Shown: positions 1 through 23,814 of the stretch, piece by piece | Position numbering within the stretch: the stretch's first letter is position 1 | Layout: every line of letters starts with the position of its first letter | Source of the DNA: Gemmatimonadota bacterium | GTDB lineage: Bacteria; Gemmatimonadota; Gemmatimonadetes; Palauibacterales; Palauibacteraceae | Length of the DNA stretch: 64,000 nucleotides | NCBI GenBank assembly: GCA_039587395.1 | Contig: JBDHIQ010000003.1 | Span: 22,582-86,581 of the forward strand | Direction of reading: 5' to 3' | Notes under the pieces: generated by a model | Told to the model about the DNA's origin: nothing | Database searches by the model: none | Seen by the model: only the letters and a program-made list of their open reading frames with translations | Program-made: the position numbers and the translations under genes

Positions 1-3000
1 CATCCTTGATGTACGCCTGCTTCTTGTCATCGTAGGCGAACATCTTCTTGTTGATGTTGAGGCACTCGTCGCACGAAGTGCAGAGCTCGGTGTCGATGTA
101 GGGCTCCAGCTCAAGCCCTTCGTCGTCCTCTGCCTCGACTTCGTCCGCCACGGCCGGCGCCTCCACCACAGCCGCCGGCGCCTCCACCACGACCGCCGTC
201 GCCGAGGTGGCAACCTGCGCGGCCAGCGGCGCACCCGTTGCCGTCAGCTCGGCCACGGTCCCCGGGTCCATCGTGATTGGGGCCAGACCCGGCGTGGACG
301 CCGCCTTGTTCAACAGATCGGCCACGGTCGACTGCCCGTTGGACCGTATCAGACCCTCCGCCAGGCGGCGGGCCACCAGCGGCGGGAAGCTCGCCTTCAG
401 CCCGGCCAGCTTGGCCTCGTACTCCTGCCGCAGCGCCTCGAGCTTCGCTTCGAGCTCGGCCTCCAGCTGCTCTTCCACCGTCTCCCGGGCCGACTGGGAC
501 ACCCGCAGACCCGCCAGCTCTTTGAGCTGGTGCCAGTGGAGAATCCGGTCCTCCGCCAGCACGACGATCTCATCGGACACGGACAGCCGGTCCAGCTTCT
601 TCTGATCGTCGAGCACGTAGATGAACGGCGTCATCCCCGATCGCTCGTCGTCCGCGGCCTGCATGTACTCGTGGAACGGCATCAGGTCGCCGTTCCAGTC
701 CTCTCGCGGGATCCGCCGGAACTGTTTCTTGAACCGCCCCTCGGTGGCGGCCCAGTCGGCGATGGTCATCGGCAGCTCCAGCGTCAGCGACTCGCCTTCG
801 TCGGAAACGTACTGGAGCTCGTACGATGGCCACGTCTCCTCGACCTCGGGATTGGACGCCAGGTCCAGGCACTCGGCGAACGTTCTGCCCTGGTCCGGAT
901 CGAACACCAGGTGCGGAAAGGCCCGACTCTCGACGGCCATTTTGGCCGCGTGCGGTGCCCATTCATCCGCCAGCCCGTGCTCTACGGGGCACGGCGTGTA
1001 GACACTGAACACCGCCGGCCGGTGCGACTGCAGCCCCTTGAGAACTCCGGCTATCAGGTGCGAAGGGTTGGCCTGCGACGTCTGCAGCACGTAGGCGCCC
1101 CGGTGCGCCATCGCGATCAGCGCCAGCTCCTTCCGGGTCTCCTGCTTGCCGTGCTGGGCCTTGCCGTAAGGCGCCATGTCGGATACCTGGCCGGTGAATC
1201 CGCTTGTGCACGCCTGGCCACCCGTGTTCGAGTAAACCTGGGTGTCGAGCACGATCACACGGATCGGTTTCCCGGAAGCCAGGAGCCGTGAGAGGTTCTG
1301 GAAGCCGATGTCCAGCATGGCGCCGTCGCCGCCCATCGCGATGACCGGCGGGCACATGAGGAACTCATCGTGTGAGAAGTCCTTCCAGCTGAATCTCTGG
1401 AACTCCGGCTCGTGGATATCACGGTCGTACTCATCATCGGCCAGCAGTTTCGCGCGGCGAACCGCCACGAACCCGTCAGCCATCTTCCGCATCTGCCCCT
1501 CAAACACGCCAATCGCGATGGACGGAGCGTCCTGGAAGAGATGGTTCACCCATGGATACGGATACGGGTTGTAGGGATACGTGCTGCCCCACACCGACGA
1601 GCACCCGGTGCTGTTCGCGATGGACATGTTGGCCCGGCCCTGGCCGCTCGGACCCTGCACGTACCGCCAGCGCAGATCCTGTAGCGCCTCGAGGGCCCGC
1701 GTGTACTGCTCGAGCAGGGCCTTCTTCTCGTCGTCCAGCTTGAGGTCCACCTCGCCGGAGGTGACGCTCGCGAGATCGAGGTCCGCGTCGCCCGCCAGGA
1801 GCCCGCGCGCTTTCGCGTCCAACCCGGCGATCAACTGGTCGAGGTGTTCCACGAACTCCTTGACCTTCGGCTGCATCATCGCCTCGATGGTCGAGACAAT
1901 CAGGTGCACGGCGGTCTTCTCCCCGCACCCCATGCAGGCGCCGTCGCCGCCAGCCATCGACTGGTAGATCTCCTTCTTGAGCAGAAGGGTCGGCAGCACG
2001 CCGATGCCCTCCTCGAGATCGGTGATGTTCAGGTAGCGATCGTCCGTATCCGGGAGTTCCTGCCACACCTCCCAGTTGCGGCGCAGCCGGTCGACAATCT
2101 CGTCATCCTGCCGAACCGTCACGAGCGCTTCTTCAGGACATACATCAACACAGATGTTGCAACCCTTACAGGCATAGGGGCTTACGGTGATAGACAGAAG
2201 CCCCCCGCTTCCCTTCTCCGTCCGCTCGGGCACGTCGAAGAACGGGACCGTCTTGGCCAGCGGGAACTCCTCGAGCACCGAGTAGACCGCCGCGAACTCC
2301 TGGTCCAGCGCACGCATGCGCTCCGGATCCCAATTCAGCTTGCCGGACAGGTTCTTGTATGCGCTGGACAGGATATCCCCGAACGTCGTGAACGGGACGC
2401 CCTTGAGCAGCTTGTGGGATTCCTTTGCCAGGTTCTTCTTGACCTGCTTGATCCGGTCCAGCGGTCGACCGTTCGTTGCCGCCCGGATGGCCGTGTCCAG
2501 GACCTGCTCGACCGAGTTCACCACTCCCGGAATGGCCGCGTCGGGACACTGGGTCCAGCACTGCGCGCAGCCGGTGCACAGGTCGGGGATGAAGTCGGGG
2601 ACCTCGAAGCGGATGTCCGTCATGTCGCGGAACGTGCTGGTGGCCGCCGGGATGGCGCTGATGGCGGCAAACGGGTCGGCAATCGGGTCCTGTCCGACCG
2701 CGCAGAGCCCGCACACCTGCTCCCAGAAACGACCCGGGTTCCCGATTCCCTGCAGCGCTTCCGGATGATCGAGCAGGCGCGGGATCGCGCCGACCACGAC
2801 ATCGCCGACCTCTTCGCCGGTCTTCTCGTCGTAGCTCTCGTAGTCCACCTTGGCTATCTCATCGTAACCGCGGCGGATCACCCGCAAGTTGTCCTCCACG
2901 ACGCGCTCGCCCAGGTGGCCGAACTTCTTGTCCAGCTGCGCCCGGATTCCCTCGAACAGCTGATCACGGTCCAGCCCTGCCTCCTCGACCAGCGGAGAGG

Positions 3001-4966
3001 TGGCGAAGAACGCGCCCATGAACGCCGTTCCCTGCATGCGGTACCGCAGGTCCGGATCGCTGGCCTCCTCCGTGGCGATCTTGAAGGCGTCCAACCCGTA
3101 CACCCTGATCCCGCGCTCGCGGATGGTGCGGCGGGCGTCGGCCGGGAACGACTGCCACAGGGCCTGCGGGTCGTCATCCGTCTGGATGATGAACCGGCCA
3201 CCTTCGGACAGCCCGGCCAGGGGGTCGGAGTTGCCGAACACGTTCGGATCGGGTGACAGCACGACGTCCACGTGCTTGAGCTCGGCGTTGAGCAGGATGG
3301 GCTCGCGCGCCAGTGTCGCGTAGAACGTGGTGGGCTGTCCCTTCTTCTCGGAGCCGTACTTGGGGTTCGCCTTGATCTCGAGCCCGAACAACTCGAAAGC
3401 GGTGAGGGCGACGTTCTTGCCCATCGTGATGGCGCCCCACCCGCCAACGGAGTGAATGCGGATCGATATGGAGCCCTTCGGCATCAGGTTGATGTCACCC
3501 GCCGAGGGCAGCGACAGGTGCACCAGGTCCGGGTATTTCTCGACCAGCTCATCCTGCCAGATCTGGAGCTTCGGCAGATCGGTGCCTTCCAAGATGAAGT
3601 CGATCCCCAGGTAGTACTGGCGGCGCCGGCCGCCATCCTCCAGCATATTCTCGACCGCGGCGATCATGTCGCCCGGCTGCAGGTCGCGGCTGCCGAACCC
3701 GAAGCCGCCGGAGAAGAAGTCCGGGACCTCATCGGGGGAGATGGCCTCGATGCCGGGGAACGGGATTTTGCCGTTCTTCCCGTTGCGGGCCGCTTTCCGC
3801 GCCCTCCAGTTCTCCTGGCCCTGGGAGATGGCCGCGCGGACCTCGCGCAGGATCGGCGGATCCACGGCCAGCGGCTGATCGCAGCGTTCCAGAATGGTGA
3901 CGGCCTTCTTGCCGCGCAGCAGCCGGCTGACCAGGTCCGTCGGGAACGGGCGGAACATGACCAGGTCCATCACGCCAATCTTCAGGCCGCGGGTCTCCCT
4001 CAGGTGGTCCGCCACAACCATCGCGTTTCCGACCACCGTGCCCTGTCCCATGATTACGTACTCGGCGTCTTCCAGCCGGTAGCCCATGGCGCGCGCGTAT
4101 TGCCGACCCGTGAGCTCGGCGTATTCCGCCATAGCCTGGTCCGCCAGGTCCTGCACATGGTCAAAGTAGAAGGGACGCTGGGCCGCCACGCCCTGGGCGT
4201 AACTGTCCTGGTTCTGCACGGATCCCAGGAGGGCCGGGTAGTCCACGTCGAACAGCTCGGGGATCCGGCGCCGCGTATCGCCGAACACCAGCCGCTGCGC
4301 CGGGGTGGGCGTTTCGATGATGTCCGCCGGATCGCCCAGGAACTCCTTCAGCATCTGGGGCTCGGGAAGCTGGAACGACTCGATGACATGGCTGGTGAGG
4401 AAACCGTCCTGGGCCACCGCCCCGGGGTTCAGGGACAGCTCTGCTACGCGGTGTGCAATAGCCGTGAGGTCCGCCGTTTGCTGCACATCTCGCCCGAACA
4501 GCAGGAAGAACCCGGTGTCGTCGATGGCGTGGTAGTCATCGTGCCCCGCGTGCACGTTGAGCGCGTGCTTGGTCATCGCTCGCGCCGCGATGTTCAGCAC
4601 GTAGGTGAGACGCTTGCCCGCCGCCGCGTACAGCGACTCCGCCATGTAGGCAATCCCCTGCCCGCTCGAAAAATTCGTGGCACGGAGCCCGGTCATGCTC
4701 ATTCCCGCGGTCACCGCGGCCGCCGCGTGCTCTCCCTCCGGCTCGAAGAACAGGAGTGGTCTGCCGTTGACGTTGATCTTTCCCTTGGCCACCGCCGCGG
4801 CCCACCCCTCACCCATCTGCGTCGATGGCGTGATGGGATACGCACCAGCGCCCTCGCTCACGGACGTCTCCACGTGGACTACGGCCTCGCTGCCATCGGT
4901 CGCGGTCCTGACGCCAGGGTACTTAGGGGACACCTGCGGCTCTTCGTTTCTGCGTCTAGTCATCAT
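1..4966 (-). CDS. por: Pyruvate:ferredoxin(flavodoxin) oxidoreductase, single-chain PFOR (NifJ/Por-type), C-terminus beyond window edge; carries a non-canonical C-terminal extension
   Basis: Minus-strand frame is open from the ATG at 4966-4964 down to position 1. There is no stop codon inside the window, which is why the ORF track omits it. Manual translation gives MMTRRRNEEPQ...TDGSEAVVHVE (domain I), two CxxCxxCxxxCP ferredoxin motifs, the post-ferredoxin GDGACMGCGEKT motif, and the TPP motif GGDGAMLDIGFQ...VLDTQVYSNTGGQ. The upstream in-frame stop is at 4997-4999. That is at least 1655 codons, versus about 1170-1230 for classic PFOR. Confidence 0.85.
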   Translation of the reverse strand, partial: MMTRRRNEEPQVSPKYPGVRTATDGSEAVVHVETSVSEGAGAYPITPSTQMGEGWAAAVAKGKINVNGRPLLFFEPEGEHAAAAVTAGMSMTGLRATNFSSGQGIAYMAESLYAAAGKRLTYVLNIAARAMTKHALNVHAGHDDYHAIDDTGFFLLFGRDVQQTADLTAIAHRVAELSLNPGAVAQDGFLTSHVIESFQLPEPQMLKEFLGDPADIIETPTPAQRLVFGDTRRRIPELFDVDYPALLGSVQNQDSYAQGVAAQRPFYFDHVQDLADQAMAEYAELTGRQYARAMGYRLEDAEYVIMGQGTVVGNAMVVADHLRETRGLKIGVMDLVMFRPFPTDLVSRLLRGKKAVTILERCDQPLAVDPPILREVRAAISQGQENWRARKAARNGKNGKIPFPGIEAISPDEVPDFFSGGFGFGSRDLQPGDMIAAVENMLEDGGRRRQYYLGIDFILEGTDLPKLQIWQDELVEKYPDLVHLSLPSAGDINLMPKGSISIRIHSVGGWGAITMGKNVALTAFELFGLEIKANPKYGSEKKGQPTTFYATLAREPILLNAELKHVDVVLSPDPNVFGNSDPLAGLSEGGRFIIQTDDDPQALWQSFPADARRTIRERGIRVYGLDAFKIATEEASDPDLRYRMQGTAFMGAFFATSPLVEEAGLDRDQLFEGIRAQLDKKFGHLGERVVEDNLRVIRRGYDEIAKVDYESYDEKTGEEVGDVVVGAIPRLLDHPEALQGIGNPGRFWEQVCGLCAVGQDPIADPFAAISAIPAATSTFRDMTDIRFEVPDFIPDLCTGCAQCWTQCPDAAIPGVVNSVEQVLDTAIRAATNGRPLDRIKQVKKNLAKESHKLLKGVPFTTFGDILSSAYKNLSGKLNWDPERMRALDQEFAAVYSVLEEFPLAKTVPFFDVPERTEKGSGGLLSITVSPYACKGCNICVDVCPEEALVTVRQDDEIVDRLRRNWEVWQELPDTDDRYLNITDLEEGIGVLPTLLLKKEIYQSMAGGDGACMGCGEKTAVHLIVSTIEAMMQPKVKEFVEHLDQLIAGLDAKARGLLAGDADLDLASVTSGEVDLKLDDEKKALLEQYTRALEALQDLRWRYVQGPSGQGRANMSIANSTGCSSVWGSTYPYNPYPYPWVNHLFQDAPSIAIGVFEGQMRKMADGFVAVRRAKLLADDEYDRDIHEPEFQRFSWKDFSHDEFLMCPPVIAMGGDGAMLDIGFQNLSRLLASGKPIRVIVLDTQVYSNTGGQACTSGFTGQVSDMAPYGKAQHGKQETRKELALIAMAHRGAYVLQTSQANPSHLIAGVLKGLQSHRPAVFSVYTPCPVEHGLADEWAPHAAKMAVESRAFPHLVFDPDQGRTFAECLDLASNPEVEETWPSYELQYVSDEGESLTLELPMTIADWAATEGRFKKQFRRIPREDWNGDLMPFHEYMQAADDERSGMTPFIYVLDDQKKLDRLSVSDEIVVLAEDRILHWHQLKELAGLRVSQSARETVEEQLEAELEAKLEALRQEYEAKLAGLKASFPPLVARRLAEGLIRSNGQSTVADLLNKAASTPGLAPITMDPGTVAELTATGAPLAAQVATSATAVVVEAPAAVVEAPAVADEVEAEDDEGLELEPYIDTELCTSCDECLNINKKMFAYDDKKQAYIKD

Positions 4967-4999
4967 CTTCCGTCGCTCTATGTCTTCGTATGCGCTCTA

Positions 5000-5872
5000 C
5001 TACGCGCTCATCCGCTCGCCAGTCTGCACAGCCCCTTCCGAATCCGCAGATCCGACCGTGAACTGTGCGCCCTCCACCCACACGATTGCATTGGTAGGAC
5101 ACCTTGCGGTCGCCGCCGGATCGGCCAGCTCGTTCTTCGAGTAGTCAATCACGGGCAGTCCGTCCACCATTTCGATCAGACCGGGCGCCGCATCCACCGC
5201 GCACCGGCCACAGGCGTTGCAGGCGACGCGGCACACCATCTCCGCCTCGTCACCCTCCAGCATGGTCCTGCACTGGACGATCAGCTGTTGCTCCAGCGGC
5301 ATCAACACGAACAGGTCAAGCGGGCACGCCTCGACACAGTCGTTACAGCCCGTGCACAGCTCGGGGTCCACCACCGGCAGCTCGACGGCGTTCATGCGGA
5401 TGGCGTCGAAATCGCAGACCACGGCACAGTCCGCCAGACCCACACATCCCCAGGCACAGCCCTTTCCGCCGCCACTGACCGCTACGGCGGCGCCGCAGCT
5501 GCCGATCCCGTGGTAATTCGCCTTCCGCGTGGCTACATCCGAGCCGCCCGCGCACAGCAGGCGCGCCACCTTCTTGTTTGCCTCGCCCGCATCCACACCC
5601 AAGAAGCCGGCGATGATGTGGACGTCCGCCTCTCCCAGCACGGTGCATTCGGCGGGCGCCACGTCGCCGCTCACCGCCAGCTCGGCGAACGCGCGGCAAC
5701 CGGCCTGCCCGCAGGCCCCGCAATTGGCCCCTGGCAGCAGATCCGAAACCGTATCGATCCGCGGATCCTCCCACACCTTCAGCTTGCTGTTGGCCAGGGC
5801 AATCAGTGTGCCGAACGTCAGACCGACCCCGCCCAGAATGGCGACTGAAACCAGGATGCCGTCGAGTTCCAT
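5000..5872 (-). CDS. RnfB-like membrane-anchored iron-sulfur protein (orphan; no other rnf genes in window)
   Basis: 290 aa. It has an N-terminal TM helix, the LPGANCGACGQAGC cluster motif typical of RnfB, and two 4Fe-4S ferredoxin-type Cys motifs (CTGCNDCVEACP, CNACGRCAVDAAP). It sits 28 nt upstream of the PFOR start on the same strand. Confidence 0.75.
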   Translation of the reverse strand: MELDGILVSVAILGGVGLTFGTLIALANSKLKVWEDPRIDTVSDLLPGANCGACGQAGCRAFAELAVSGDVAPAECTVLGEADVHIIAGFLGVDAGEANKKVARLLCAGGSDVATRKANYHGIGSCGAAVAVSGGGKGCAWGCVGLADCAVVCDFDAIRMNAVELPVVDPELCTGCNDCVEACPLDLFVLMPLEQQLIVQCRTMLEGDEAEMVCRVACNACGRCAVDAAPGLIEMVDGLPVIDYSKNELADPAATARCPTNAIVWVEGAQFTVGSADSEGAVQTGERMSA

Positions 5873-5884
5873 GGAGATCCCCGG

Positions 5885-7048
5885 CTACAGGTCGCTAAGG
5901 TCCGCTTGCTGGATCAGCCAGGCCGCCAGCAGATCCACGTCGGAGGCCGGCCCGGCCGGAGGCGCCGCGGGTGCTGCCGCGGTCGGTCCTGCCGAGGCGG
6001 CCGCGAGGGCGGTGAGCATCTTCAGCTCCTGCTGCTGCTGAAACGCCGTGACCGATCCCAGATCCCGTCTGGGTGCTTCATCCGGCAGGAAGCTGACCTC
6101 CAGCCGCCCGAGTGCCTCATCGCCACCGGGCTCGTGCACGAACCGGCCGGCCGTCTCCGGCAGGACCGCGGCGATGGCCGGTCCCGCCTGCTCAGCCATG
6201 GCACGCACGTCATTCGGATCGCCGGTCTGCATGACGAATACGCCCGGCGTGATGAGCCGGACCAGCGGCGCCGGGGGCGCCTGGCCGCTCACCGCGAGGG
6301 CGATCTTCTGTCCGCCATCCAGGAACTCCGCCAGGCCGCCCGCATGCAGGTCGGCCCCATTGACTTCCACGACCAGCGGCGGGGCGATCTCTCTCTCTTT
6401 CCCATTCCAGCGGTGGAACGGGAACGCCTCCATCATCGGCTCGTGCTGCTCGGCCACGTAGCGGCCGGATCGCGCGAGCTCGAAAACCCTGGCGGCACCG
6501 AAGATCCGCCCGCACTCGGCCAGGGCGGCTGCCACCTGCCCTTGCAGGTCACCGCCGGCCGGTACCTGCACCCGGTGCACCTCGGCTCCCCTGGCCATGA
6601 CCGCCGACAGCGTCTCGAACGCCCGGCGCATCGGGACCAGCTCCGCCTCACTGATCGACTCGCTGTCCCCGATGATCTCCGTCAGCCGGGCAACGTCGAT
6701 CCTGCCGGCTGCAAACGGGCCGAGCTCGCTCGCCATCCGCCCCGAACCGTCATCGTCCCGGGTCTCGTGCGCCTCCAGGTAGCCCCGCACCTGGTCCACG
6801 GTCACGGCCAGGCTGGAGTGGAACGCTTCACGCGACGGCGCCAGCGCCTCGAGCAGCGCGTCGACCGCCTCTGGACCTGCCTTGCCCTCCTCGGAAGCTG
6901 TGGCGGCGGCTGTCTCCCCCCCGGCCGTCTCCGTGGACTCCCCGGTGGCCTCTTCCTGCGCCGTATCCACGGCAGCGTCCTCGACGGCGGTCGCGACCTC
7001 GGCCGCGTCCCCCGGAGCCTCGCGGGGCTCGTCGGGCTCAGACTGCAT
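5885..7048 (-). CDS. Conserved hypothetical protein (acidic disordered N-terminus, Ala/Pro-rich C-terminus), no recognisable domain
   Basis: 387-aa ORF. Its composition looks protein-like, unlike the R-rich antisense ORF 5906..7336. It is wedged between korB and the rnfB-like gene with small gaps and overlaps the korB stop by 11 nt. The start is uncertain; internal Met codons could serve. Confidence 0.55.
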   Translation of the reverse strand: MQSEPDEPREAPGDAAEVATAVEDAAVDTAQEEATGESTETAGGETAAATASEEGKAGPEAVDALLEALAPSREAFHSSLAVTVDQVRGYLEAHETRDDDGSGRMASELGPFAAGRIDVARLTEIIGDSESISEAELVPMRRAFETLSAVMARGAEVHRVQVPAGGDLQGQVAAALAECGRIFGAARVFELARSGRYVAEQHEPMMEAFPFHRWNGKEREIAPPLVVEVNGADLHAGGLAEFLDGGQKIALAVSGQAPPAPLVRLITPGVFVMQTGDPNDVRAMAEQAGPAIAAVLPETAGRFVHEPGGDEALGRLEVSFLPDEAPRRDLGSVTAFQQQQELKMLTALAAASAGPTAAAPAAPPAGPASDVDLLAAWLIQQADLSDL

Positions 7049-7991
7049 AGCGGTCGAACTCCTGATTCAGGATGTCGATCTTCTCTTGCGCGGTATACGC
7101 CGGCAGGCCGCGCGTCTCTTCGTACCTCGGATTCGCTTCGTCGCGGAAGAAGACACCCAGACGAATCCGCTCGTCCGGCTCGGCATACCGCCGGGCCGCA
7201 TCGATGTCTTTGGGATCGTGCCGTCTCCGGTTCGTATAGATCTTCTCGAGCGCCGGCACGACGATACCCTGCTCGTGCTCCAGCAACTCGACCAGGTCCG
7301 GGTCACGCATGTAGTTCAGGAACACGTCGTCCGTGAACTTCGGACAGCGCTGGAGAATCCGGACGAACGCGAATCCGCGGTGCGCGTACGCGGCCTCTAG
7401 GGTCGCGTACAGATGCGCCGGGATCCACTCGGCCGTCTGGGCCACGAAGGACGCGTTCGTCACGCCCAGCGTAGCCTCCAGCGGGTTCAGCGCGGGGAGA
7501 TAGCTCCCGTACGGCTGCGTGTTAGTCGAATGGCCTTGCGGCGTCGTCGGCGACGTCTGGTTCTTCGTCAGGCCGTATACGGCGTTGTCCAGCATCAGCG
7601 CGACCATGTCCACGTTGTAGCGGATGGCGTGAATCCAGTGGCCGGCTCCGATCGAAACGCAGTCCCCATCGCCCATCACTGCAAAGACGTTCAGATCCGG
7701 TCGGTTCAGCTTGACCCCCGTCGCTACGGGCAACGCACGGCCGTGCAGGCCGTGGAAGCCATACGCGTTCACGTAGTGCGGGAATCGGCTCGAGCATCCG
7801 ATGCCGGACACGAACACGGTGTTCTCCGGAGTGAGTCCCTGGGAGACCATCAGCCGTTGCACGGAGGCCAGAACCGAGTGGTCGCCGCAGCCGGGACACC
7901 AGCGAGCCTGCGCCTTCTCGAAGTCCGCCATGCTGTAGTCCCGCTCCTCCTCCTGGGACATCCAGAGAAGCGAGCAGCCGCTCGCGCTCAT
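7038..7991 (-). CDS. korB: 2-oxoacid:ferredoxin oxidoreductase beta subunit (TPP-binding), KorB/OorB type
   Basis: 317 aa. It has the WCPGCGDHSV motif, the TPP-binding GDGD region and C-terminal homology to KorB/PorB. The start overlaps the korA stop (ATGA coupling). Confidence 0.9.
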   Translation of the reverse strand: MSASGCSLLWMSQEEERDYSMADFEKAQARWCPGCGDHSVLASVQRLMVSQGLTPENTVFVSGIGCSSRFPHYVNAYGFHGLHGRALPVATGVKLNRPDLNVFAVMGDGDCVSIGAGHWIHAIRYNVDMVALMLDNAVYGLTKNQTSPTTPQGHSTNTQPYGSYLPALNPLEATLGVTNASFVAQTAEWIPAHLYATLEAAYAHRGFAFVRILQRCPKFTDDVFLNYMRDPDLVELLEHEQGIVVPALEKIYTNRRRHDPKDIDAARRYAEPDERIRLGVFFRDEANPRYEETRGLPAYTAQEKIDILNQEFDRYAV

Positions 7992-9895
7992 CGGGCACCT
8001 CCTTCGGGCATATTGGCTCGAATCACGTCGTGTATGACCCCGGGCCGGAGGGGCTCGCCGAGCACACGCGTCCAGCAGTCAATGTCCACCAGCGTATGGG
8101 CTCTGAGCAGCCACGCCAGTTGCCCACGGCGCCGGTTCTCATCCGTGATGAACGGGGAGCTCGGGTCGTCGCTGTAATTGATCTCCACCGTCATCACCTT
8201 CTTGAACCGCTTGAAGATCTCCTTGAGTCCGGGCTCGAGCGGAGAGAGGAAGGTCAGGTGCAACGAGGAAACCGAGTGACCTTCCGCCCGCGCTCTGTCC
8301 ACCGCCTCTTCGATCGCACCCCTGGTGCTTCCCCACCCCACGACGAGCAGGTCGCCTGATTCGTCACCCTTCACCGTCGGGGGTCGGAGCGTCTGCTGAA
8401 GCACGGCAATCTTCCGGCTCCGCATGTCCGCGCCCCGTTGGTTGATGTCCGAAGCATACGCGACTTTGCTCCATTCGTCATGGGCCAGACCGGTCGCGGT
8501 GAACTGGCCGCCGGGCTGCCCCGGAATGAAGCGCTGCGACAGGCCCGTTTGCTCATCCCAATCGTACGGCGGCTTGTCCTCTGACACCGGGCTGAGGTCG
8601 GGCGCCGGAGCGTGCCACGACGCGTCCGCCTCGGGCCGCGGGAATGGCGTCACGCCGGTGGCCAGGTTGGCATCGGACAGCACGATCACCACGGTGCGGA
8701 ACGTTTCCGCTATCCGCCGTGCGGTGATCATGATGTGGAAGCACTCCTCGATGGTCGCCGGCGCCACCACGACGTGAGGCGCGTCTCCCGGCTGCCCGAA
8801 GATGGCCGCCAGTAGATCCGACTGCTCCACTTTGGTCGGCAAGCCGGTGCTGGGACCTCCGCGCTGGACGTCGATGACGACCAGCGGGACCTCGATCATG
8901 ATGGCCAGACCCAGAAACTCGGTCTTCAGCGCCATCCCCGGCCCGGAGGTGATGGTGAACGCCGTCTTGCCGGAATAGGAGGCTCCGATCGACACGCCTG
9001 CGGCCGCGATCTCATCCTCCGCCTGGTGCACGACTCCGCCGTACCGCTCGAATACTTCTCCCAGGTGGTGGGATACCGAGGTGGCCGGCGTGATGGGGTA
9101 CATCGCGGCCAACTCCATCCCGGCGGCGATGGCCCCGAGCGCCACGGCCTGGTTGCCGTTCATGACGACCATGTCCTGGGCGGCGGGCTTGCGCGGCACC
9201 TGGACGCGAAAGTCCAGGTTCTCTTCCGCCCACCGCACCCCCAGCTCCAGAAGCGCCACGTTGATCTCCGTGACCTTCGGCGCCTTTCGCCGGAACGCGT
9301 GCGCGATCTGCTCGCGCACCAGGTCCAGGTCCAGGTCGTGGAGGTGGGCCAGGAGCCCCAGCACGAACATGTTCTTCCCGCGCTGCGGGTCATCCACGAT
9401 GGCCAGGCACTCCTCCTCCATCGGAACTTCTATGATCCGGTAGTCGAAGCCCGACAGCTCCTCCATGACCTCGCGCCACTCCTGCTGGATGGACTCGTCG
9501 TCGTGGGTCTTCCACTTGTTCTCCAGCAGGATGATGGCGTCGGGCTCCAACGCGTCCAGCTGGTGCCGCATGGACAGAACCTGCTCGTTGAACGCCACGC
9601 TCAGGTTTGTGCGATCGCCCCAGTTGGTGACCGGCTCCGTGCCGATCCGGATCCGGTTGCCGCTGGCCCCGGCCGGCAACCGCGCCGGCGGCTGAATCTC
9701 GGCAGGGATGATCTCCACCGTCCACACGCCGTTGCCCATCTTGGCGCACACGGCCCCGAAGATCTGGCTGCACTTCTGCGCGCCCTCTCCGGAGTCCGAC
9801 ACGACCTCCACCGTCCACAGGTCCCGCTTGACTGTCCGGGGCGCCTTGCCGCGCGTCTCTGGAGCTGCCGCCGGTGTCCTGGTTTTTGTCGCCAT
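7988..9895 (-). CDS. korA: 2-oxoacid:ferredoxin oxidoreductase alpha subunit with fused N-terminal gamma domain (KorA of two-subunit KorAB type)
   Basis: 635 aa. The N-terminal gamma-type motif is VVSDSGEGAQKC...; the alpha-subunit core follows (YPITPATS, GVVHQAEDEIAAAG). True ATG at 9895-9893. Confidence 0.9.
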   Translation of the reverse strand: MATKTRTPAAAPETRGKAPRTVKRDLWTVEVVSDSGEGAQKCSQIFGAVCAKMGNGVWTVEIIPAEIQPPARLPAGASGNRIRIGTEPVTNWGDRTNLSVAFNEQVLSMRHQLDALEPDAIILLENKWKTHDDESIQQEWREVMEELSGFDYRIIEVPMEEECLAIVDDPQRGKNMFVLGLLAHLHDLDLDLVREQIAHAFRRKAPKVTEINVALLELGVRWAEENLDFRVQVPRKPAAQDMVVMNGNQAVALGAIAAGMELAAMYPITPATSVSHHLGEVFERYGGVVHQAEDEIAAAGVSIGASYSGKTAFTITSGPGMALKTEFLGLAIMIEVPLVVIDVQRGGPSTGLPTKVEQSDLLAAIFGQPGDAPHVVVAPATIEECFHIMITARRIAETFRTVVIVLSDANLATGVTPFPRPEADASWHAPAPDLSPVSEDKPPYDWDEQTGLSQRFIPGQPGGQFTATGLAHDEWSKVAYASDINQRGADMRSRKIAVLQQTLRPPTVKGDESGDLLVVGWGSTRGAIEEAVDRARAEGHSVSSLHLTFLSPLEPGLKEIFKRFKKVMTVEINYSDDPSSPFITDENRRRGQLAWLLRAHTLVDIDCWTRVLGEPLRPGVIHDVIRANMPEGGAR

Positions 9896-9964
9896 TTCCC
9901 GTTCTCTCGGCCGTTATTTCGAATCGCCGTTAGAATTTACCGTCTTGCCGTTCTGGCGTCTGTC

Positions 9965-9988
9965 GGGCGATATCGCCCACCCACAGTG
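9965..9988. promoter_or_regulatory. Dyad-symmetric elements in the kor operon upstream region (GGGCGATATCGCCC 14-bp perfect palindrome followed by CCCACAGTGGG)
   Basis: Seen directly in the 170-bp gap between the upstream gene's stop and the korA start. A CCACAG...CTGTGG inverted repeat also lies at about 9981-10016. Confidence 0.3.
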
Positions 9989-10066
9989 GGGAGAAGCCGG
10001 GCCATTCTGTGGGGAACTACCCTACACCGCACCCACCTGCCGGATCGCCCTCCGCACGGCCCTCCC

Positions 10067-12745
10067 TCAGCCACCCGAACGTGCCCGCTCCAGCAGGGCA
10101 TCCAGGGCGCGATACCTGGTCTCCATCTCGCGGGCGACAACCTCCTCGCTCGGGTCCGAATCGGCGAGGCCGAGGAGCTGGCCGGCCCCGCTCGCGGGCG
10201 TCTCGCAGTGTGTGGCGTCGGCCACCATCGCCCGGCCCGACTCCGTGTCCCCCTCGCTCAGACCGGACTCTTCCCCCTCGTAGGGTCGCACCATGTCCAC
10301 CGCCGTGGCGAAGGACGCCATGGCCTGTTCCGGCCGGCCGCTCTTCCAGGCGATGTACCCGACCAGAAAGTGCGCCTCGCTGCTCTGCGGGTTCGACCGG
10401 AGGACCGTACTCAGATACTCCTCGGCCTCTGCCATCCGCCCGCGCAGCAGCGCCACCTGGCCCAGCCACAGCAACGAACCCGTCTCTTCCTGGTTGATCT
10501 CCAGGGCCCGTCCGAACTCCGCGGCGGCGCGTTGCGGGTCGAACAGCTGACCTCCCACGCACGTGTGAATCACTCCTACCTGGCGGTGTACGCGGGCGTC
10601 CCGGGGGTTGATCGTCAGGAGACGCTCCCAGGCCAGCGCCGCACCCGGCTGATCGCCCAGGTCGAACCGCATGTTGCCCAGCCAGTACAGCGTGTTCTCG
10701 TGCTCCGGATCGAGTTCGAGCGCCGCTTCGTAGTCCGCCGCCGCCGCACCCGTCCGCCCTTCGATGCGGTGCCGCGTGGCGCTCCGGTACAGCTCCCAGA
10801 ACCGGAGCACGGTCTCGCGGTCGGCCGACGCCGTCCCACCCTCAACCCGGGGGGCACCGGAAGCCCGCAAGGCACCGGGCACTGCGCCGGCCAGCGCCGC
10901 CTGGCCAGGCAGCGGTCCGGCCTCCGCCCGCACGATCCCCTCGCCTTCCACCAGGTCGATGGTCTGGTTGGGGGCAATCCCCGTGAACGCCTCGCGCCGG
11001 CCGCCGGGCCAGAACACTTCCAGCGTGTCCACCGGCTCGTCCACGCCGGCCAGGCCCCCGAGACCGAAGTGCTCAACGGAGCTGTTCTGGGACAGGTAGG
11101 ACCCCTGCGCACCCGCGTACCGCGACTGAACCTGCCCGCCGGCGACCAGGCGGAGCCGTGCCCCGACCGGATCCGTCCCGCCGTCCTGGGGACTCAACCG
11201 CACTTTCAGCCATGCGTTCCGGTTCCCGCCATCGTTGCGCAGAAGGACTCCGGGACCGCCGTTGTTGACGATGAAGACATCCACATCTCCATCGTTGTCG
11301 TAGTCTCCGAACGCGGCGCCGCGCCCGACCAGCGTGCGTGCGAAGTGCTCGCCGCTGGCGCTGGACACGTCGAAGAAGCCGTCTTCGGCGCCGCGGTTCC
11401 AGAACAGCTTGTCGGGCATTGCCACCAGCCGCTCGGGCTCCTCCGGTTCCTGGAAAGTGCTCCCGTTGACTACCAGCAGGTCCAGCTTGCCGTCATTATC
11501 GTAGTCGAAGAACGAGGTCCCCCACCCGATGTAGTCCAGCGCGATCTGACCCAGCCCGTGCCGGTCGGCCTCGTCCATGAACTGGAGTTGGCTCGAGGCG
11601 GGGCGGCCCAGCTCTTCCAGCCGTGACCGCATGCTGCTGAACAGCGCGTTCTCCTGGGCAATCCAGTGGGTGACGAAGATGTCCGGATCCTCATCGCCAT
11701 CCCAGTCGCCGACGGCCAGGCCCATCGCTCCCCGGTAGTCGGACACCAGCGCGGCGTGGCTCACGTCGCGGAACGTCCCGTCCCCGAGGTTGCGGTAGAG
11801 GGCGTTGTCGGACACGTCGTTGGCCACGTACAGGTCCAGCAGCCCGTCGCCGTCAAAGTCTGCCCACGAGACGCCCAGGCTGCGTCCCTCGCGGCCGTCC
11901 ACGCCGCTCTCCCGGGCCACTTCCTGGAACGTCCCGTCCCCGCGGTTCCGGAACAGAAGGTTGCGCTCGGGTCGGAAGGACGAAGGGTTGAGGCTGGCCG
12001 GCACTTCCACGTCGTACTGCAGCGAGGTCGGGCCTCCCGCTCCGGGCGAGTACTTCACGTACCCCGCCACGTACAGGTCCAGGTCGCCGTCCTGGTCGTA
12101 GTCGGCCCACGCGGCGCCGGCCCAGTAGCCCACGTGGCCGGCGATGCCGGACGCACGCGTCACATCTTCGAACGATCCATCGCCGGTGTTCCGGTACAGC
12201 CGGTTCTCCCCGTACGCCGACACGAACAGGTCCCGCCACCCGTCGCCGTCGTAGTCTCCCCAGGCGCCGGCCATGTCCAAGCCGCGGAACCTCACGCCGG
12301 CCCCATCGCTCACTTCGGTGAACGTCCCGTCACCCTGGTTGTGGTACAGGGCGCTGTGGACCGGCGCCGCCTGCAGTTCCTCCGTCGACAGCGTGAGAGG
12401 GCCTGCCAGGTTCGCCACGAATAGATCCGGCCAACCGTCGTTGTCGTAGTCTCCCCACGCGGCGCCCGACCCCATGTCCTCCGGAAGCTGGCTGCTGCGC
12501 GAGCCGGAAAAGTGACGGAACTCGATGCCTGCCTGAGCGGTCACGTCCGTGAACGTCACCCGTGGATAGTCGTCCGGCAGCGCACGGTCCAGCCCACGGG
12601 TGAGGCCCTCTATCTCCTCGCCCGGCCGGTACACGTCGCCTGGCCGCACGACGAGCCATACAGCCAGGACCGACGCCACCGTGAACAGGAGTCCGGCGCC
12701 GGCCGTGATGGCCAGATTGCGCTTGCGTCGCGGCAGATTTCTCAT
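10067..12745 (-). CDS. CRTAC1/ASPIC-UnbV family FG-GAP/VCBS-repeat protein with C-terminal TPR repeats, N-terminal signal anchor
   Basis: 892 aa. It has repeated GDYDNDGWPDLFV and WADYDQDGDLDLYV FG-GAP motifs, an UnbV/ASPIC-like middle region, and a C-terminal TPR region (YEAALELDPEHENTLYWLGN...). ATG at 12745. Confidence 0.8.
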   Translation of the reverse strand: MRNLPRRKRNLAITAGAGLLFTVASVLAVWLVVRPGDVYRPGEEIEGLTRGLDRALPDDYPRVTFTDVTAQAGIEFRHFSGSRSSQLPEDMGSGAAWGDYDNDGWPDLFVANLAGPLTLSTEELQAAPVHSALYHNQGDGTFTEVSDGAGVRFRGLDMAGAWGDYDGDGWRDLFVSAYGENRLYRNTGDGSFEDVTRASGIAGHVGYWAGAAWADYDQDGDLDLYVAGYVKYSPGAGGPTSLQYDVEVPASLNPSSFRPERNLLFRNRGDGTFQEVARESGVDGREGRSLGVSWADFDGDGLLDLYVANDVSDNALYRNLGDGTFRDVSHAALVSDYRGAMGLAVGDWDGDEDPDIFVTHWIAQENALFSSMRSRLEELGRPASSQLQFMDEADRHGLGQIALDYIGWGTSFFDYDNDGKLDLLVVNGSTFQEPEEPERLVAMPDKLFWNRGAEDGFFDVSSASGEHFARTLVGRGAAFGDYDNDGDVDVFIVNNGGPGVLLRNDGGNRNAWLKVRLSPQDGGTDPVGARLRLVAGGQVQSRYAGAQGSYLSQNSSVEHFGLGGLAGVDEPVDTLEVFWPGGRREAFTGIAPNQTIDLVEGEGIVRAEAGPLPGQAALAGAVPGALRASGAPRVEGGTASADRETVLRFWELYRSATRHRIEGRTGAAAADYEAALELDPEHENTLYWLGNMRFDLGDQPGAALAWERLLTINPRDARVHRQVGVIHTCVGGQLFDPQRAAAEFGRALEINQEETGSLLWLGQVALLRGRMAEAEEYLSTVLRSNPQSSEAHFLVGYIAWKSGRPEQAMASFATAVDMVRPYEGEESGLSEGDTESGRAMVADATHCETPASGAGQLLGLADSDPSEEVVAREMETRYRALDALLERARSGG

Positions 12746-12779
12746 GGTCCGGCCGGTGTGCTCTCGCTACCGGATCCGC

Positions 12780-14090
12780 TTACGCCGCCGGACCGTCAAT
12801 CTCGAGCACCATCACGTGCTGCACGTCCAGCTCGTCACCCCAGACGCCGTAGATCCTGGTGCCCTGGAACAGAAGCGGCATGAACCGGGGCGGCGTCGTC
12901 ACTACGCCCAGAAACCGGCCTTCCGCATCAAACACATCCCAGTCCGACCCGCCGATGGACAGCAGCGGATTGTAGTCTTCCAGCTCTTCGGCGCTGAGGG
13001 AGCTGGGAGCGACCATTTGCTGGACCCAGATCGACCCCTCCGGCCCGGCCAGGAACCGCATGTAGACCGGGAAAAACTCGGCAAAACTCACGCGCGATCG
13101 GATAGTCGGGATGGCGCTTTCCGGGACTCCCGCGTTCAGCCAGGCCTCTTCCAGGATGTCCATGAACACGCCCTCATCGGCATCCGTGACCGGCATGCGC
13201 TCGGCCGGCATGCGGATGATCCGCTCCAACTCGCCGGTCGGCCCGTACACGTTGATGGAGTACTGATCGTTGACGCCGAACAGCAGCTTGTCATTGCCCG
13301 CCAGCGCCCAGGTAGGCTCGGCCACGAAGAACGTCGCCGTGCCTGCCTGGAGATCCAGGGTCTTTCCCGACTCCATCTTCAGGAGAGTGTCCAGGGGAGC
13401 GCCTTCGGCATCGCGTGCTACGATGGCATCCATCTGTGCGGACACGTCAATCGTGTCGGCACCCGGCTGATTCGGCAGCACGAACGGGCGGATCTGGTTG
13501 ACGATCTGCCCGGACGGACGCGCCGCCCAGGCGGCAGGCAGCCCGCCCTCCAGGGACAGCCGGTAGCTGCCGGCGGGGGTCCCGTCCGGCGCGTAGCGGT
13601 TCACGCGCTGGTTGGCCAGGTCCGGCACGAACACCGTATCGCCCCGCCCGATGAGCACGGGGGCCGCCTGCGGGCTCAGCTCGCCCGGCCCGGAGCCCGG
13701 GCCCCCAAACGAACCGAGGTGACTCCCGTCTGGCCCGAACAGGCGCAGCTCCTGCGCCTGCTGGTCCAGGACGAAGATCCGCTCGTCCGACGTAACGCCG
13801 ATTCCGATGATCTGGCCGAACATGTAGGCGGGCTCGGCCTCGATGGCTCCAATCCGCAGCACTTCCCTGAGAGACCAGCGCTCGCCCGCCGTCCACATCT
13901 CCTCACGCTGGTTGCTGACGATCGTGATGCCGGCGCTGTCTCCCACCGTGCCCGTCCACGCGCCTCCCGACTCTTCCCCGCTGCAGCCGAGCGGGGCGAT
14001 AGCCAGGGTGGCGGCAGCCAGTCCGCCGAACAGTGTCACCGCCACTTTGCGGCTCTTCGAGGCCGCAGGTCCCTCTTCACTCACCATCAT
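12780..14090 (-). CDS. Beta-propeller (NHL-like repeat) lipoprotein, hypothetical
   Basis: The ORF runs to 14129, but the signal peptide with lipobox (...LAIAPLGCSG) follows the internal Met pair at about 14090. Repeated ...GxGxGPGE.../...RIYV... blades are visible. Function unknown. Confidence 0.65.
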   Translation of the reverse strand: MMVSEEGPAASKSRKVAVTLFGGLAAATLAIAPLGCSGEESGGAWTGTVGDSAGITIVSNQREEMWTAGERWSLREVLRIGAIEAEPAYMFGQIIGIGVTSDERIFVLDQQAQELRLFGPDGSHLGSFGGPGSGPGELSPQAAPVLIGRGDTVFVPDLANQRVNRYAPDGTPAGSYRLSLEGGLPAAWAARPSGQIVNQIRPFVLPNQPGADTIDVSAQMDAIVARDAEGAPLDTLLKMESGKTLDLQAGTATFFVAEPTWALAGNDKLLFGVNDQYSINVYGPTGELERIIRMPAERMPVTDADEGVFMDILEEAWLNAGVPESAIPTIRSRVSFAEFFPVYMRFLAGPEGSIWVQQMVAPSSLSAEELEDYNPLLSIGGSDWDVFDAEGRFLGVVTTPPRFMPLLFQGTRIYGVWGDELDVQHVMVLEIDGPAA

Positions 14091-14168
14091 TATCCCGTTG
14101 TCCCATCTATATAGAGTATTGGTCACCATGCTTCGGCTTCCGGTTCCCCTCTCTGCTCTCCTCCCGCC

Positions 14169-16307
14169 TCAGCGTCCGGAGGCGGGTGCCTCCGTTGTCT
14201 GGCCGACCGCGATGGTCGCCTCGGCCTCCGACATCACCGTGACCGGAGCCGTCAGACCCGAGTCCTCTCCAAACAGGAAATTCAGGAGGAACTGGTCGAA
14301 CTTCCGGTACAGGAGGCGGGCTTCCACGTGCAGCTGCGTAGCCGATCCCGCCGGCGCTTCGACGCCGAACTCTTGCTCGGTCTGGAACCCCTCACCGGCC
14401 GACTCGCCCCCCAGCATCGTGGCCGGACAGATGAATGCAAACTCGGCCTGATCCGAGAACCCGGGGAACATCGCGCGCCGGTACCGTACGCCGACCATCT
14501 CCCACAGGTTGTGGCGATCGATGAGGTTGCCGTACTGGTCTACGGGCTCCGCCTTGAAGATGAACGAGCCGGGCTCGATGAAGTGCCGCTCGTCGCGCTG
14601 CCCTGACTCGAATACCACGTTGCCCGCTTCATCGGTCACGACCAGCTCCACCCAGGCCTGGATGATATCGAGCGGTCCGGTCGGAAAGTCGTGGCCCACC
14701 TTGTTGTTCGTAATCGATACCTGGATGTCGATCGCATCGCCCGGCTGGACTCTCTCGGGCGCGATGATCTCGATCGGCACCGCCGGACCTGCCTGCCACT
14801 TGTGCGCGATCTCCGGGATCTCCAGCTCGCCGCGCAGCCACTGCCTGGTCAGGCTCACCTGCTCCTCGGCTCCCGGTAGCTGCAGCGCCACCGGCATGAA
14901 CTGATTGGCAGCCAGGAACCGGTGGCTGCGGTGCTTCCCATCGCCCGGCGAGCGGTTGTAATCCAGATCATCTCCACTCGCCGCGTCGTCCGAGTCCTGG
15001 AGCGGCATGTGGCACTCCCGGCACTCGACGGTCTTTTCCGGGTCGCCGGGGTGGTTCCAGCGGCTCTTGCGCCAGTTGTCGTACTGGTTCTGGAGCTGCA
15101 CCCAGCCCACCTGGTTGATCTCCTCGTCGATGAACTGCTTGTGGCAGGCGGCGCAGAATTCAGGGCTCTTGAACAGCGTGTGCTGCAACGTCGAGACATG
15201 GTGCCTGGGATACGCGCGGATCAGGAAATCGCTGATCCATTTTTCCCGCTCGCCCTCTCGCAGCTCGTACATGTAACGGTCCGGCTGGGTCATCACGTAG
15301 TTGGCGTTGCCCGCGATGTCCGTCTCCTTGATGGCATGGCACGCGACGCACGAGATCCCTTCCTGGTATCCGATGAGTCCCGTCAGATCGTCGGTGAACA
15401 CGTTCTTGGTGCCCGAGAACAGCGAGATGGGATCGTGGCAGCCACCGCAATAACGAGTCGACTCCGCCCCGTTCTGCTCCGCCATCACGGACTGGACCTT
15501 CTGGAAACCGGCATCCATCGCGGACCAGCGATGGGCGCTCACCTCCCACTCCTTCTTGATCTGCTCGTGGCAGCCGGCGCTGCCGCATGCCTCGGAGCCG
15601 CCCAGGGCGCGCGAGTCGAACGCGCCTCCCGTGCTCGTGTTCGCGAGGCTGGGTGCGAACGGCCGGTCCTCTCCGTACAGCCAGCTGTAGTCCTCCGGGA
15701 ACTGGTCGTTGAGCTGGGGCTCCTGGTACCGCCAGGTGAGGGCGGCCACCACCGCCAGCAAGCCGACGGTGACGATCCCGGTGCCGAGGCCGAACCGCCG
15801 TTCGGCTCCCAGGACCACCGCCGCCTTTTCGGTCCTTTTCGCCCGGACGGTCCGCAGGATCAGCGTCCCGAGGTGCGGGAGAACCGACACGACGATGGCG
15901 ACCGTGCTGACGATGTGGACGACATCCCAGGTGTAGCTGATCCGGAGTCCCCACACGGCCTGATAGGTCAGCACCAGCCCCGACACGATGGCGACCAGCG
16001 TGGCGACCAGGGCGAAGTACCCCGTCAGCACGACGTGGGACATTTGCATGCGCCGGTAGATGGCCCAGTGCCGCGCGGCGTACCAGAAGAACGGCAGCAG
16101 GAAGACCAGACCGATGGCCGTGTGCAGGAGAACCATGATCTGGTTGGAGACGCTGAACGGCAGCAGCCAAATGGACAGGCCGGTCAAGGTCTCGAAGGTC
16201 AGCAGTCCACCGACCAGGATCAGCAGCTTCCGTTTCCACTCGTCCGCGCGCGCGTACGGGTCTTTGCGCTCGGTTGAAGCTTCCATCTTCGCGTTCACGG
16301 TGTTCAT
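14169..16307 (-). CDS. Membrane-anchored multiheme c-type cytochrome (five CxxCH) fused to an N-terminal 5-TM domain containing 4 His (putative dihaem b)
   Basis: 712 aa. Five N-terminal hydrophobic helices carry His residues in LLHTAIG, ARHW, VVHIVS and LPHLG. The haem-c motifs are CGSAGCH, CGGCH, CVACH, CAACH and CRECH. A C-terminal domain of about 250 aa has no haem motif. The strong RBS GGGGAGGA lies directly before the ATG. Confidence 0.8.
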   Translation of the reverse strand: MNTVNAKMEASTERKDPYARADEWKRKLLILVGGLLTFETLTGLSIWLLPFSVSNQIMVLLHTAIGLVFLLPFFWYAARHWAIYRRMQMSHVVLTGYFALVATLVAIVSGLVLTYQAVWGLRISYTWDVVHIVSTVAIVVSVLPHLGTLILRTVRAKRTEKAAVVLGAERRFGLGTGIVTVGLLAVVAALTWRYQEPQLNDQFPEDYSWLYGEDRPFAPSLANTSTGGAFDSRALGGSEACGSAGCHEQIKKEWEVSAHRWSAMDAGFQKVQSVMAEQNGAESTRYCGGCHDPISLFSGTKNVFTDDLTGLIGYQEGISCVACHAIKETDIAGNANYVMTQPDRYMYELREGEREKWISDFLIRAYPRHHVSTLQHTLFKSPEFCAACHKQFIDEEINQVGWVQLQNQYDNWRKSRWNHPGDPEKTVECRECHMPLQDSDDAASGDDLDYNRSPGDGKHRSHRFLAANQFMPVALQLPGAEEQVSLTRQWLRGELEIPEIAHKWQAGPAVPIEIIAPERVQPGDAIDIQVSITNNKVGHDFPTGPLDIIQAWVELVVTDEAGNVVFESGQRDERHFIEPGSFIFKAEPVDQYGNLIDRHNLWEMVGVRYRRAMFPGFSDQAEFAFICPATMLGGESAGEGFQTEQEFGVEAPAGSATQLHVEARLLYRKFDQFLLNFLFGEDSGLTAPVTVMSEAEATIAVGQTTEAPASGR

Positions 16308-16376
16308 TCCTCCCCGGCGGCCTGGCCGTCGGAATCAGTACCGGTTGTCTTCCCTCTGCACCTCACGGCTCCTGCT

Positions 16377-17620: not shown

Positions 17621-17654
17621 GATCCGCCCTTCCACTATGCCCATGCCGCTTGCC

Positions 17655-19294: not shown

Positions 19295-19326
19295 CGCATC
19301 CTCCTCGAGCTGCACCTGCGTTCTGC

Positions 19327-21914: not shown

Positions 21915-21945
21915 GTCTTCAGAGTCTCCCTGCTCCCGGTGTTAC

Positions 21946-23813: not shown

Positions 23814-23814
23814 G

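Follow-up and report, generated by a model that had tools for sequence, protein, structure and literature searches.

A ten-gene KorAB–PFOR–Rnf cluster is a standard feature of Gemmatimonadota genomes and is not dedicated to a neighbouring benzoyl-CoA reductase-like operon

The 2-oxoacid:ferredoxin oxidoreductase KorAB supplies the benzoyl-CoA reductase (BCR) of Thauera, according to PMC9973337 (citing Dorner & Boll 2002), which also places korAB in the benzoate cluster of some R. palustris strains. For the Rnf complex, the operon order rnfBCDGEA has been reported for the Chlorobi/Bacteroidetes lineage (PMC4014512). Here we analyzed a 64,000-nucleotide stretch of a Gemmatimonadota bacterium (GCA_039587395.1, contig JBDHIQ010000003.1, positions 22,582 to 86,581), termed the window, whose positions 1-9895 encode a KorAB, a protein named X, an RnfB and a giant pyruvate:ferredoxin oxidoreductase (PFOR). 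A sequence-only reading of this DNA had proposed that these genes form a dedicated electron-supply unit for a BCR-like operon nearby. We found that they make up the first two-thirds, at the 5' end, of a cluster that spans ~14.3 kb from korA to rnfA and is packed like an operon, that this ten-gene cluster is a standard feature of Gemmatimonadota genomes, and that the module is not dedicated to the reductase. The likely role of the cluster is that of a general 2-oxoacid-oxidizing module that passes electrons to NAD+ via Rnf and that may also feed the reductase.

All five genes of window positions 1-9895 are co-directional on the minus strand and have a coding-type G+C content at third codon positions (GC3) of 0.81-0.87, in agreement with the earlier gene list. 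They are korA (fused gamma-alpha subunit, 7988..9895, 635 aa), korB (beta subunit with thiamine diphosphate and [4Fe-4S], 7038..7991, 317 aa), the gene for X, a conserved protein of unknown function (5885..7048, 387 aa), rnfB (membrane-anchored polyferredoxin subunit, 5000..5872, 290 aa with 20 Cys), and the giant PFOR-like gene por (1..4966). The start of korB overlaps the korA stop by 4 nt, and the X gene overlaps korB by 11 nt. Gaps within the korA-to-por run were between -11 and +33 nt, compared to 171 nt in the intergenic region 5' of korA (9896..10066). The claim of a ferredoxin-linked redox module, in which KorAB is joined by another 2-oxoacid oxidoreductase and by an Fe-S protein of the membrane, was thereby supported. 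The PFOR was present as claimed, and it was truncated by the window start: the first 1655 of its 1700 codons lie in the window and the last 45 and the stop codon lie beyond position 1, so that its full length was seen only on identical contigs. These contigs were fetched via the JGI protein P0001, which is identical to the window PFOR. Contig L006 is 100% identical to window positions 1-14816 and extends past the window edge into rnfCDGEA, and three sister contigs match the window at identities of at least 99.987%.

The RnfB had been described as an orphan, which the sequence just outside the window refuted, because rnfCDGEA directly follow the PFOR gene. The PFOR stop codon is located 136 nt past window position 1 and is followed by a 31-nt gap and then by rnfC, ~170 nt beyond the edge. 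On contigs L006 and L004, por is followed by rnfC (442 aa), rnfD (335 aa), rnfG (221 aa), rnfE (250 aa), and rnfA (192 aa), and all six Rnf subunits are encoded at the locus when the window and the identical contig are taken together. RnfC, RnfD, and RnfE scored above their NCBIfam cut-offs (504/246, 307/207, and 233/213, respectively), while RnfA (224 vs 229) and RnfG (99.5 vs 102) were slightly under theirs. RnfB has PF04060 FeS and Fer4 domains (Pfam), scored 74.8 against TIGR01944 (rnfB, cut-off 68.7), and aligned almost from end to end with two RnfB chains solved by cryo-EM, 9ERI_B (E 1e-53) and 7ZC6_B (E 1e-49). Its N-terminus MELDGILVSVAILGGVGLTFGTLIALA is hydrophobic and forms an N-terminal membrane helix. 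RnfB therefore belongs to a complete rnfBCDGEA-type operon that is split by the PFOR gene, with the 5.1-kb por lying between rnfB and rnfC in the loci examined. Judging from the families of its subunits, the Rnf encoded here would be an ion-translocating ferredoxin:NAD+ oxidoreductase.

To describe the distribution of the cluster, we used a KorA scan with one genome per species, which gave 80 loci with KorA identities of 68-82%. Synteny was examined by tblastn with all window proteins, and each gene was counted only in loci long enough to show it. About 70 of the 80 loci are labelled Gemmatimonadota, Gemmatimonadales or Longimicrobiales. KorB (77/77), X (70/70), and PFOR (54/54) were present in every locus counted, and RnfB and RnfC were present in 64 of 66 and 43 of 45 loci, respectively. 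The order korA-korB-X-rnfB-por-rnfC-rnfD and the strand were kept in essentially all of these loci. Independent gene calls on contigs of 4.7 Mb and 2.1 Mb showed the same ten genes, with different upstream neighbours on these two contigs (a nos cluster in one and a peptidase M20 gene in the other). A metagenome-assembled genome of Gemmatimonas sp. (L070) carries the cluster as well. Full-text literature searches on BCR, or on an Rnf/PFOR cluster, in Gemmatimonadota did not turn up a text that describes this gene order. The components all fall into known enzyme classes, and it is the arrangement that is apparently undescribed. Its unusual features are the por gene inside rnfBCDGEA, the korAB-X genes joined to the front, the 1700-aa PFOR with a tethered fourth cluster, and X.

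The BCR-like operon is located at 16377-24558 on the minus strand and encodes a TetR regulator (24558-23815), Oah-like, Dch-like, and BcrC/B/A/D-like proteins, a small open reading frame (ORF), and a Had-like protein whose gene ends at 16377. From window position 1 to ~24600, every real gene lies on the minus strand (GC3 of 0.79-0.87, with the usual GC1 > GC2), and the transcription order is the BCR-like operon, three genes for extracytoplasmic proteins, the 171-nt gap, and korA-korB-X-rnfB-por. The module, which the sequence-only reading had placed upstream of the reductase operon, is thus located 3' of it, i.e., transcriptionally downstream, while the claimed distance of about 7 kb agrees with the 6.5 kb that we found between korA and the had-like gene.

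A dedicated unit that regenerates low-potential ferredoxin for an ATP-dependent aryl-CoA reductase, as in Thauera, would be in line with this proximity on the same strand and with the lack of a classical 2[4Fe-4S] ferredoxin gene in the BCR-like operon; in the 64-kb window, the motif CxxCxxCxxxC was found only in RnfB and PFOR. The kor/por cluster is the sole ferredoxin-type electron source visible near the BCR-like operon. The precedent is real (PMC9973337), both for KorAB supplying the T. aromatica reductase and for korAB in the R. palustris benzoate cluster, but it does not transfer to this locus. Among the 43 cluster loci with more than 9 kb of sequence upstream of korA, BCR-like genes were present upstream within 10 kb in two and absent in the other 41, despite the conservation of the cluster across the phylum. 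In L008, the closest relative of the window, the BCR-like operon lies on the same strand, with 310 nt between the end of its had-like gene and korA. In L073, the BCR-like operon is divergent from korA, and it has identities of 33-48% and a different gene order. These two cases speak for a dedicated unit. The position beside that operon is specific to the lineage of the window and L008.

The same comparison was made from the side of the reductase. BcrC-like orthologues with 70-76% identity are numerous and, where named, belong to Gemmatimonadota. None of the 13 orthologous operons with usable flanks (L088, L091, L094, L095, L103, L104, L106, and L130-L135) adjoined kor-X-rnfB-por. Their neighbours were genes for hemerythrin, cytochrome bd, amidases, LigD/Ku, radical-SAM enzymes, and similar proteins. 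A kor set that is truly attached to such an operon was found in the metagenome contig L132 (16171-21052), where the BCR-like operon is followed by hemerythrin, a 608-aa Fe-S flavoprotein (Fer4_20/Pyr_redox_2), and a KorA/KorB pair. Like the window, L132 thus has KorA/KorB-like genes after an orthologous BCR-like operon, but without X, rnfB, or a giant PFOR, and its kor set is a different paralogue (KorA 29% and KorB 37% identical to the window proteins). Together with its own Fe-S flavoprotein, this set resembles a three-component 2-oxoglutarate:NADP+ oxidoreductase reported for Azoarcus. L132 shows the form that a dedicated kor set has in this BCR-like operon family. With the juxtapositions limited to 2/43 and 0/13, the TetR regulator belonging to the BCR-like operon itself, the three genes and the 171-nt gap in between, and RnfB being part of a full Rnf complex, the dedicated supply unit was largely refuted, and we regard it as highly improbable. 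Among the orthologous BCR-like operons, some have TetR as their regulator and others have PaaX.

At the opposite end, the adjacency could be an accident of rearrangement, with the reductase fed by an unlinked system and without any functional relation to the module. This would agree with the close relatives L010, L011, and L012 (79-81% KorA identity), which had no BCR-like gene in the 4-6 kb upstream of korA, with the three intervening genes, which are unrelated, and with the varied neighbours of the BCR-like operons elsewhere. However, the two juxtapositions beside korA look independent, being on the same strand in the window and L008 and divergent in L073, and two seemingly independent cases among ~44 lineages exceed chance in genomes of several Mb by a rough estimate. 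In addition, the reductase needs reduced ferredoxin, of which the cluster is the obvious producer. We therefore consider the absence of any relation doubtful. A looser link via a shared low-potential electron pool is plausible because of the two juxtapositions and the lack of a BCR ferredoxin gene, and the module probably feeds reduced ferredoxin to the ring reductase as one of several consumers.

KorA has the domain order POR (gamma, residues 36-220), POR_N (alpha, 254-474), and PFOR_II (515-577) in Pfam and scored 531 bits against TIGR03710, above the NCBIfam cut-off of 483. Among solved structures, it is closest to the 2-oxoglutarate oxidoreductase of Magnetococcus, 6N2N_A (E 1e-77). KorB has the Pfam domains TPP_enzyme_C and PFO_beta_C, and its alignment to the Sulfolobus 2-oxoacid:ferredoxin oxidoreductase beta subunit 5B46_B (E 7e-53) showed that WCPGCGD, GIGCS, GDGD, and QRCP are all conserved. 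GDGD is the thiamine-diphosphate motif, and the other three supply the four cluster cysteines. With the gamma-alpha fusion above its cut-off and the beta motifs intact, the pair belongs to the two-subunit KorAB/OAFO type, and the earlier assignment to the same type as the Thauera enzyme agrees with this architecture. No gene for a delta-type (ferredoxin) subunit was found within the cluster. The substrate of KorAB is most likely 2-oxoglutarate, judging from its relatives, in a family that also has broad-specificity enzymes (5B46). On the sister contig L004 (6870-7779, sample 3300041075), korB lacks ~40-44 nt (window 7586-7625) and is broken into ORFs of 141 and 135 aa. Either the assembly is wrong at this point or the population includes a variant whose korB is disrupted.

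The open PFOR-like frame reaches from 4996 to the edge of the window, and the full protein has 1700 aa from the ATG at 4966, a length typical of its family. The JGI call P0001 (1650 aa) starts 50 codons late (window 4816-4966) and drops part of YPITPS. The start at 4966 is preferred because the JGI start trims an N-terminus that is conserved and that homologues of 1680-1715 aa cover fully. The domains follow the canonical order POR_N, PFOR_II, POR, 2x Fer4, and TPP_enzyme_C, and both CxxCxxCxxxCP motifs and the GDGACMGCGE motif are present. With domains I-VI arranged in order on one polypeptide chain and with three [4Fe-4S] motifs, the protein resembles the homodimeric PFORs, from which it departs in its equivalog score and in its length. 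Its alignment to the Moorella PFOR 6CIN falls into five blocks. Relative to that enzyme, it has insertions at ~387-478, 814-917 (within the ferredoxin domain), and 1025-1112 and a C-terminal extension of ~340 residues. When the last 345 residues were modelled with AlphaFold2, confidence was high for a beta-rich domain and for a long helix, while a ~70-residue Ala/Pro/Glu-rich stretch had very low confidence, which fits a flexible linker, and the ferredoxin domain had low confidence too. This single-cluster ferredoxin domain (CxxCxxC...C, Fer4_13/Fer4_15, residues 1623-1677) forms the C-terminal end. A Foldseek search of the extension against the PDB gave no significant match. The 120 best-listed PFOR clusters had lengths of 1638-1743 aa and identities of 65-77%, in addition to the identical P0001, and databases give this protein only generic names. 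The YPITPS and AAR segments, which bind the 2-oxoacid carboxylate, are conserved and do not fix which 2-oxoacid is used. The most likely substrate is pyruvate, as suggested by the family of the enzyme.

X, which the sequence-only reading had listed as an unknown protein downstream of KorAB, indeed proved to be family-less. Pfam and NCBIfam scans of all 43 aligned members (X and 42 homologues) gave no match even at E <= 1. The conserved core of the protein spans ~330 aa. Its N-terminus is acidic and of low complexity, and it has an Ala/Pro-rich linker and, at the C-terminus, a conserved helix bearing the motif KLAAWLLxQADLSD. A profile search of 1.84 billion representatives returned 613 matches at E <= 0.001 and outlined a compact family, the best 150 matches being stand-alone proteins that range from 320 to 457 aa, with most at 325-375 aa. 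The AlphaFold2 model (mean pLDDT 84, core >95) consists of a helical bundle, an alpha/beta domain, the Ala/Pro linker, and the terminal helix, and a Foldseek search of this model against the PDB gave nothing at E <= 0.001 (best E = 0.34). X has a single Cys, which is not conserved, suggesting that it is not a redox carrier. In the loci L025 and L066, X is present with korAB and por while rnfB is absent between X and por, and X is therefore likelier to be a partner of the oxidoreductases than of Rnf. Most probably, X serves the two oxidoreductases in assembly or structure, without a redox role of its own.

For the general 2-oxoacid-oxidizing module, we propose the following mechanism. KorAB and the 1700-aa PFOR would oxidatively decarboxylate 2-oxoacids, likely 2-oxoglutarate and pyruvate, to acyl-CoA. 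The electrons would leave through the Fe-S chains, which in PFOR would include the extra ferredoxin domain on its flexible Ala/Pro-rich linker. RnfB would take up the electrons, and Rnf would reduce NAD+ and translocate ions. On balance, the cell would obtain the same products as from the 2-oxoacid dehydrogenase complexes, NADH included, and additional ion-motive force. A direct hand-over to RnfB is suggested by the tethered ferredoxin domain, which is encoded between rnfB and rnfC. In principle, the system could also run in reverse.

Rnf and the 2-oxoacid:ferredoxin oxidoreductases are reversible enzyme classes, and Magnetococcus, the source of the nearest solved KorA relative 6N2N, is an organism with a reductive tricarboxylic acid (TCA) cycle. 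In a reverse mode, Rnf would use the ion gradient and NADH to reduce the carriers, and KorAB and PFOR would act as 2-oxoglutarate and pyruvate synthases in reductive carboxylation or anaplerosis, or the carriers would feed other consumers including the reductase, which would then get its electrons from NADH. Two carboxylating enzymes beside Rnf would suit a ferredoxin-demanding pathway. However, no ATP-citrate lyase or other reductive-TCA marker was found in the window, the isocitrate-dehydrogenase-family enzyme and the glycogen genes of the window look heterotrophic, and the sequence sets no direction. We consider the reverse mode unlikely.

A bolder form of the oxidative module would be one membrane-bound supercomplex of KorAB, X, PFOR, and Rnf, in which the PFOR ferredoxin domain docks to RnfB and X acts as a scaffold via its linker and C-terminal helix. 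We regard such an assembly as improbable. If it existed, no soluble ferredoxin would be needed, and an ion-pumping 2-oxoacid:NAD+ oxidoreductase would be distributed across the whole phylum, where it would take over from the pyruvate and 2-oxoglutarate dehydrogenase complexes and conserve more energy than they do.

Several observations weigh against the oxidative, Rnf-coupled module with the reductase as one consumer among several. The loci L025 (1745-10835) and L066 (2116-7703) have korA-korB-X-por only, without rnfB. Both are binned as Chloroflexota (Anaerolineaceae and Tepidiformaceae, respectively), and they may reflect bin contamination or a transfer of the unit between phyla. In locus L058, por is not followed by rnfC, and the rnfC region of L009 is hidden by a gap in the assembly within por. 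KorB scored 244 bits against TIGR02177, marginally under the cut-off of 262, and PFOR scored 395 bits against TIGR02176, far below the cut-off of 911. The substrates, the direction of electron flow, and the ion are all assigned from family membership, and the role of X, which has no recognizable function, is a guess. Finally, the two juxtapositions of BCR-like genes with korA may point to a stronger link with the reductase than that of one consumer among several.

The region upstream of korA was examined for regulatory elements. The window carries GCCCGACAGACG (9957-9968, minus strand) 73 nt 5' of the korA ATG, beside the palindrome GGGCGATATCGCCC. Using k-mer enrichment over the 80 korA upstream regions, we obtained a related 12-mer, CCCCGACAGACG, which occurs exactly 5' of korA in L010, L011, L012, L070, and L071. 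With at most one mismatch, it was found in 6 of the 80 regions, window included (~0.1 expected), and its distribution is thus patchy. The korA upstream motif is a possible promoter or leader element of the cluster. No Rex-type or other clear operator was found in the 80 upstream regions. A consensus scan of 4800-17600 identified no sigma-70-like site or terminator in the relevant gaps, a scan that is uninformative for this phylum. RNA folding gave no structured leader 5' of korA (z = 0.36).

The BCR-like operon and its surroundings have further features of their own. All subunits of the operon scored well below the NCBIfam equivalog cut-offs, and no CoA ligase was found within the 64-kb window. 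Between the bcrD-like and had-like genes lies a small conserved ORF (17396-17644, minus strand, 82 aa) with the motif GW.RRFVGAPPRL..ELYESLG.EV.L...C..C...F..IYTR. Its orthologues of 87-93 aa have no Pfam match and occur at the same position in L130, L132, L133, and L135. We rejected it as the classical BCR ferredoxin since it has only a CxxC pair, and it may be an unrecognized accessory subunit of the BCR-like system. The three genes that separate the had-like gene from korA (10067-16307, minus strand) all specify extracytoplasmic proteins, namely a membrane tetrahaem cytochrome of 712 aa, with a membrane helix and four CxxCH motifs, a 449-aa NHL-like lipoprotein, and an 892-aa FG-GAP/ASPIC/TPR protein. 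They are missing from this position in L008, which suggests an insertion in the lineage of the window. A recent horizontal insertion of the BCR-like operon was also considered and set aside, with the GC content being uniform (~0.64-0.69) across 1-26 kb. Farther along the window there are a glycogen block at 36779-46530, with a phosphorylase-like gene, GlgB, a GlgA-like gene, and two GH57 enzymes, and a gene of the isocitrate/isopropylmalate dehydrogenase family at 46562-47794. The glycogen and isocitrate-dehydrogenase-family genes form an ordinary heterotrophic context, without further aromatic catabolism genes.

The kor, rnfB, and por genes at this locus are housekeeping genes of the phylum and should not serve to infer an electron supply for a ring reductase. 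What they represent is a conserved wiring of central metabolism in Gemmatimonadota, an abundant phylum of soils and sediments, in which two 2-oxoacid:ferredoxin oxidoreductases are built into an Rnf operon with the family-less X always between them. If electrons are handed over directly to Rnf, the cluster would offer an alternative to the 2-oxoacid dehydrogenase complexes that conserves energy. As an experimental system for ferredoxin-free coupling to Rnf, a cultured Gemmatimonas would be tractable, provided that the cluster is present in it.

Compared to known systems, the Rnf part resembles the rnfBCDGEA operons of Chlorobi/Bacteroidetes (PMC4014512) in having the six subunits in the same order, and it differs from them in the por gene inserted between rnfB and rnfC and in the korAB and X genes joined to the operon front. 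Its RnfB is of the long polyferredoxin type, as in the solved Rnf complexes 9ERI/7ZC6. Similar to the bcrCBAD-fdx-korAB arrangement of Thauera aromatica, a two-subunit KorAB is encoded near the genes of an ATP-dependent class I BCR-like reductase, and the predicted architecture is that of the Thauera KorAB, a ferredoxin-reducing enzyme with a fused gamma-alpha subunit and a beta subunit. Unlike in Thauera, korAB here is part of the phylum-wide kor-X-rnfB-por-rnf cluster, which nearly always lacks a BCR-like neighbour. The reductase genes here are also without an fdx and are separated from korAB by three unrelated genes and a regulator of their own.

The giant PFOR shares with the homodimeric PFORs of Desulfovibrio africanus (1B0P) and Moorella thermoacetica (6CIN) the domain order I-II-III-(IV)-V-VI, the thiamine-diphosphate motif, the two CxxCxxCxxxCP motifs, the proximal-cluster motif, and the YPITPS and AAR segments. 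In contrast to these enzymes, which are typically ~1170-1230 aa long, it has 1700 aa, with three insertions of roughly 90-100 aa and an extension in which a novel domain and a long helix are followed by a flexible linker and by a ferredoxin domain for a single, fourth cluster. An analogy, though not a homology, to this tethered domain is offered by the 2-oxoacid dehydrogenase complexes, which have swinging-arm carrier domains. In both cases, a small carrier is attached by a long Ala/Pro-rich flexible linker to an enzyme that oxidizes 2-oxoacids. Unlike the swinging-arm lipoyl domain, the carrier of the giant PFOR is a [4Fe-4S]-type ferredoxin domain, whose mobility and docking partner are putative.

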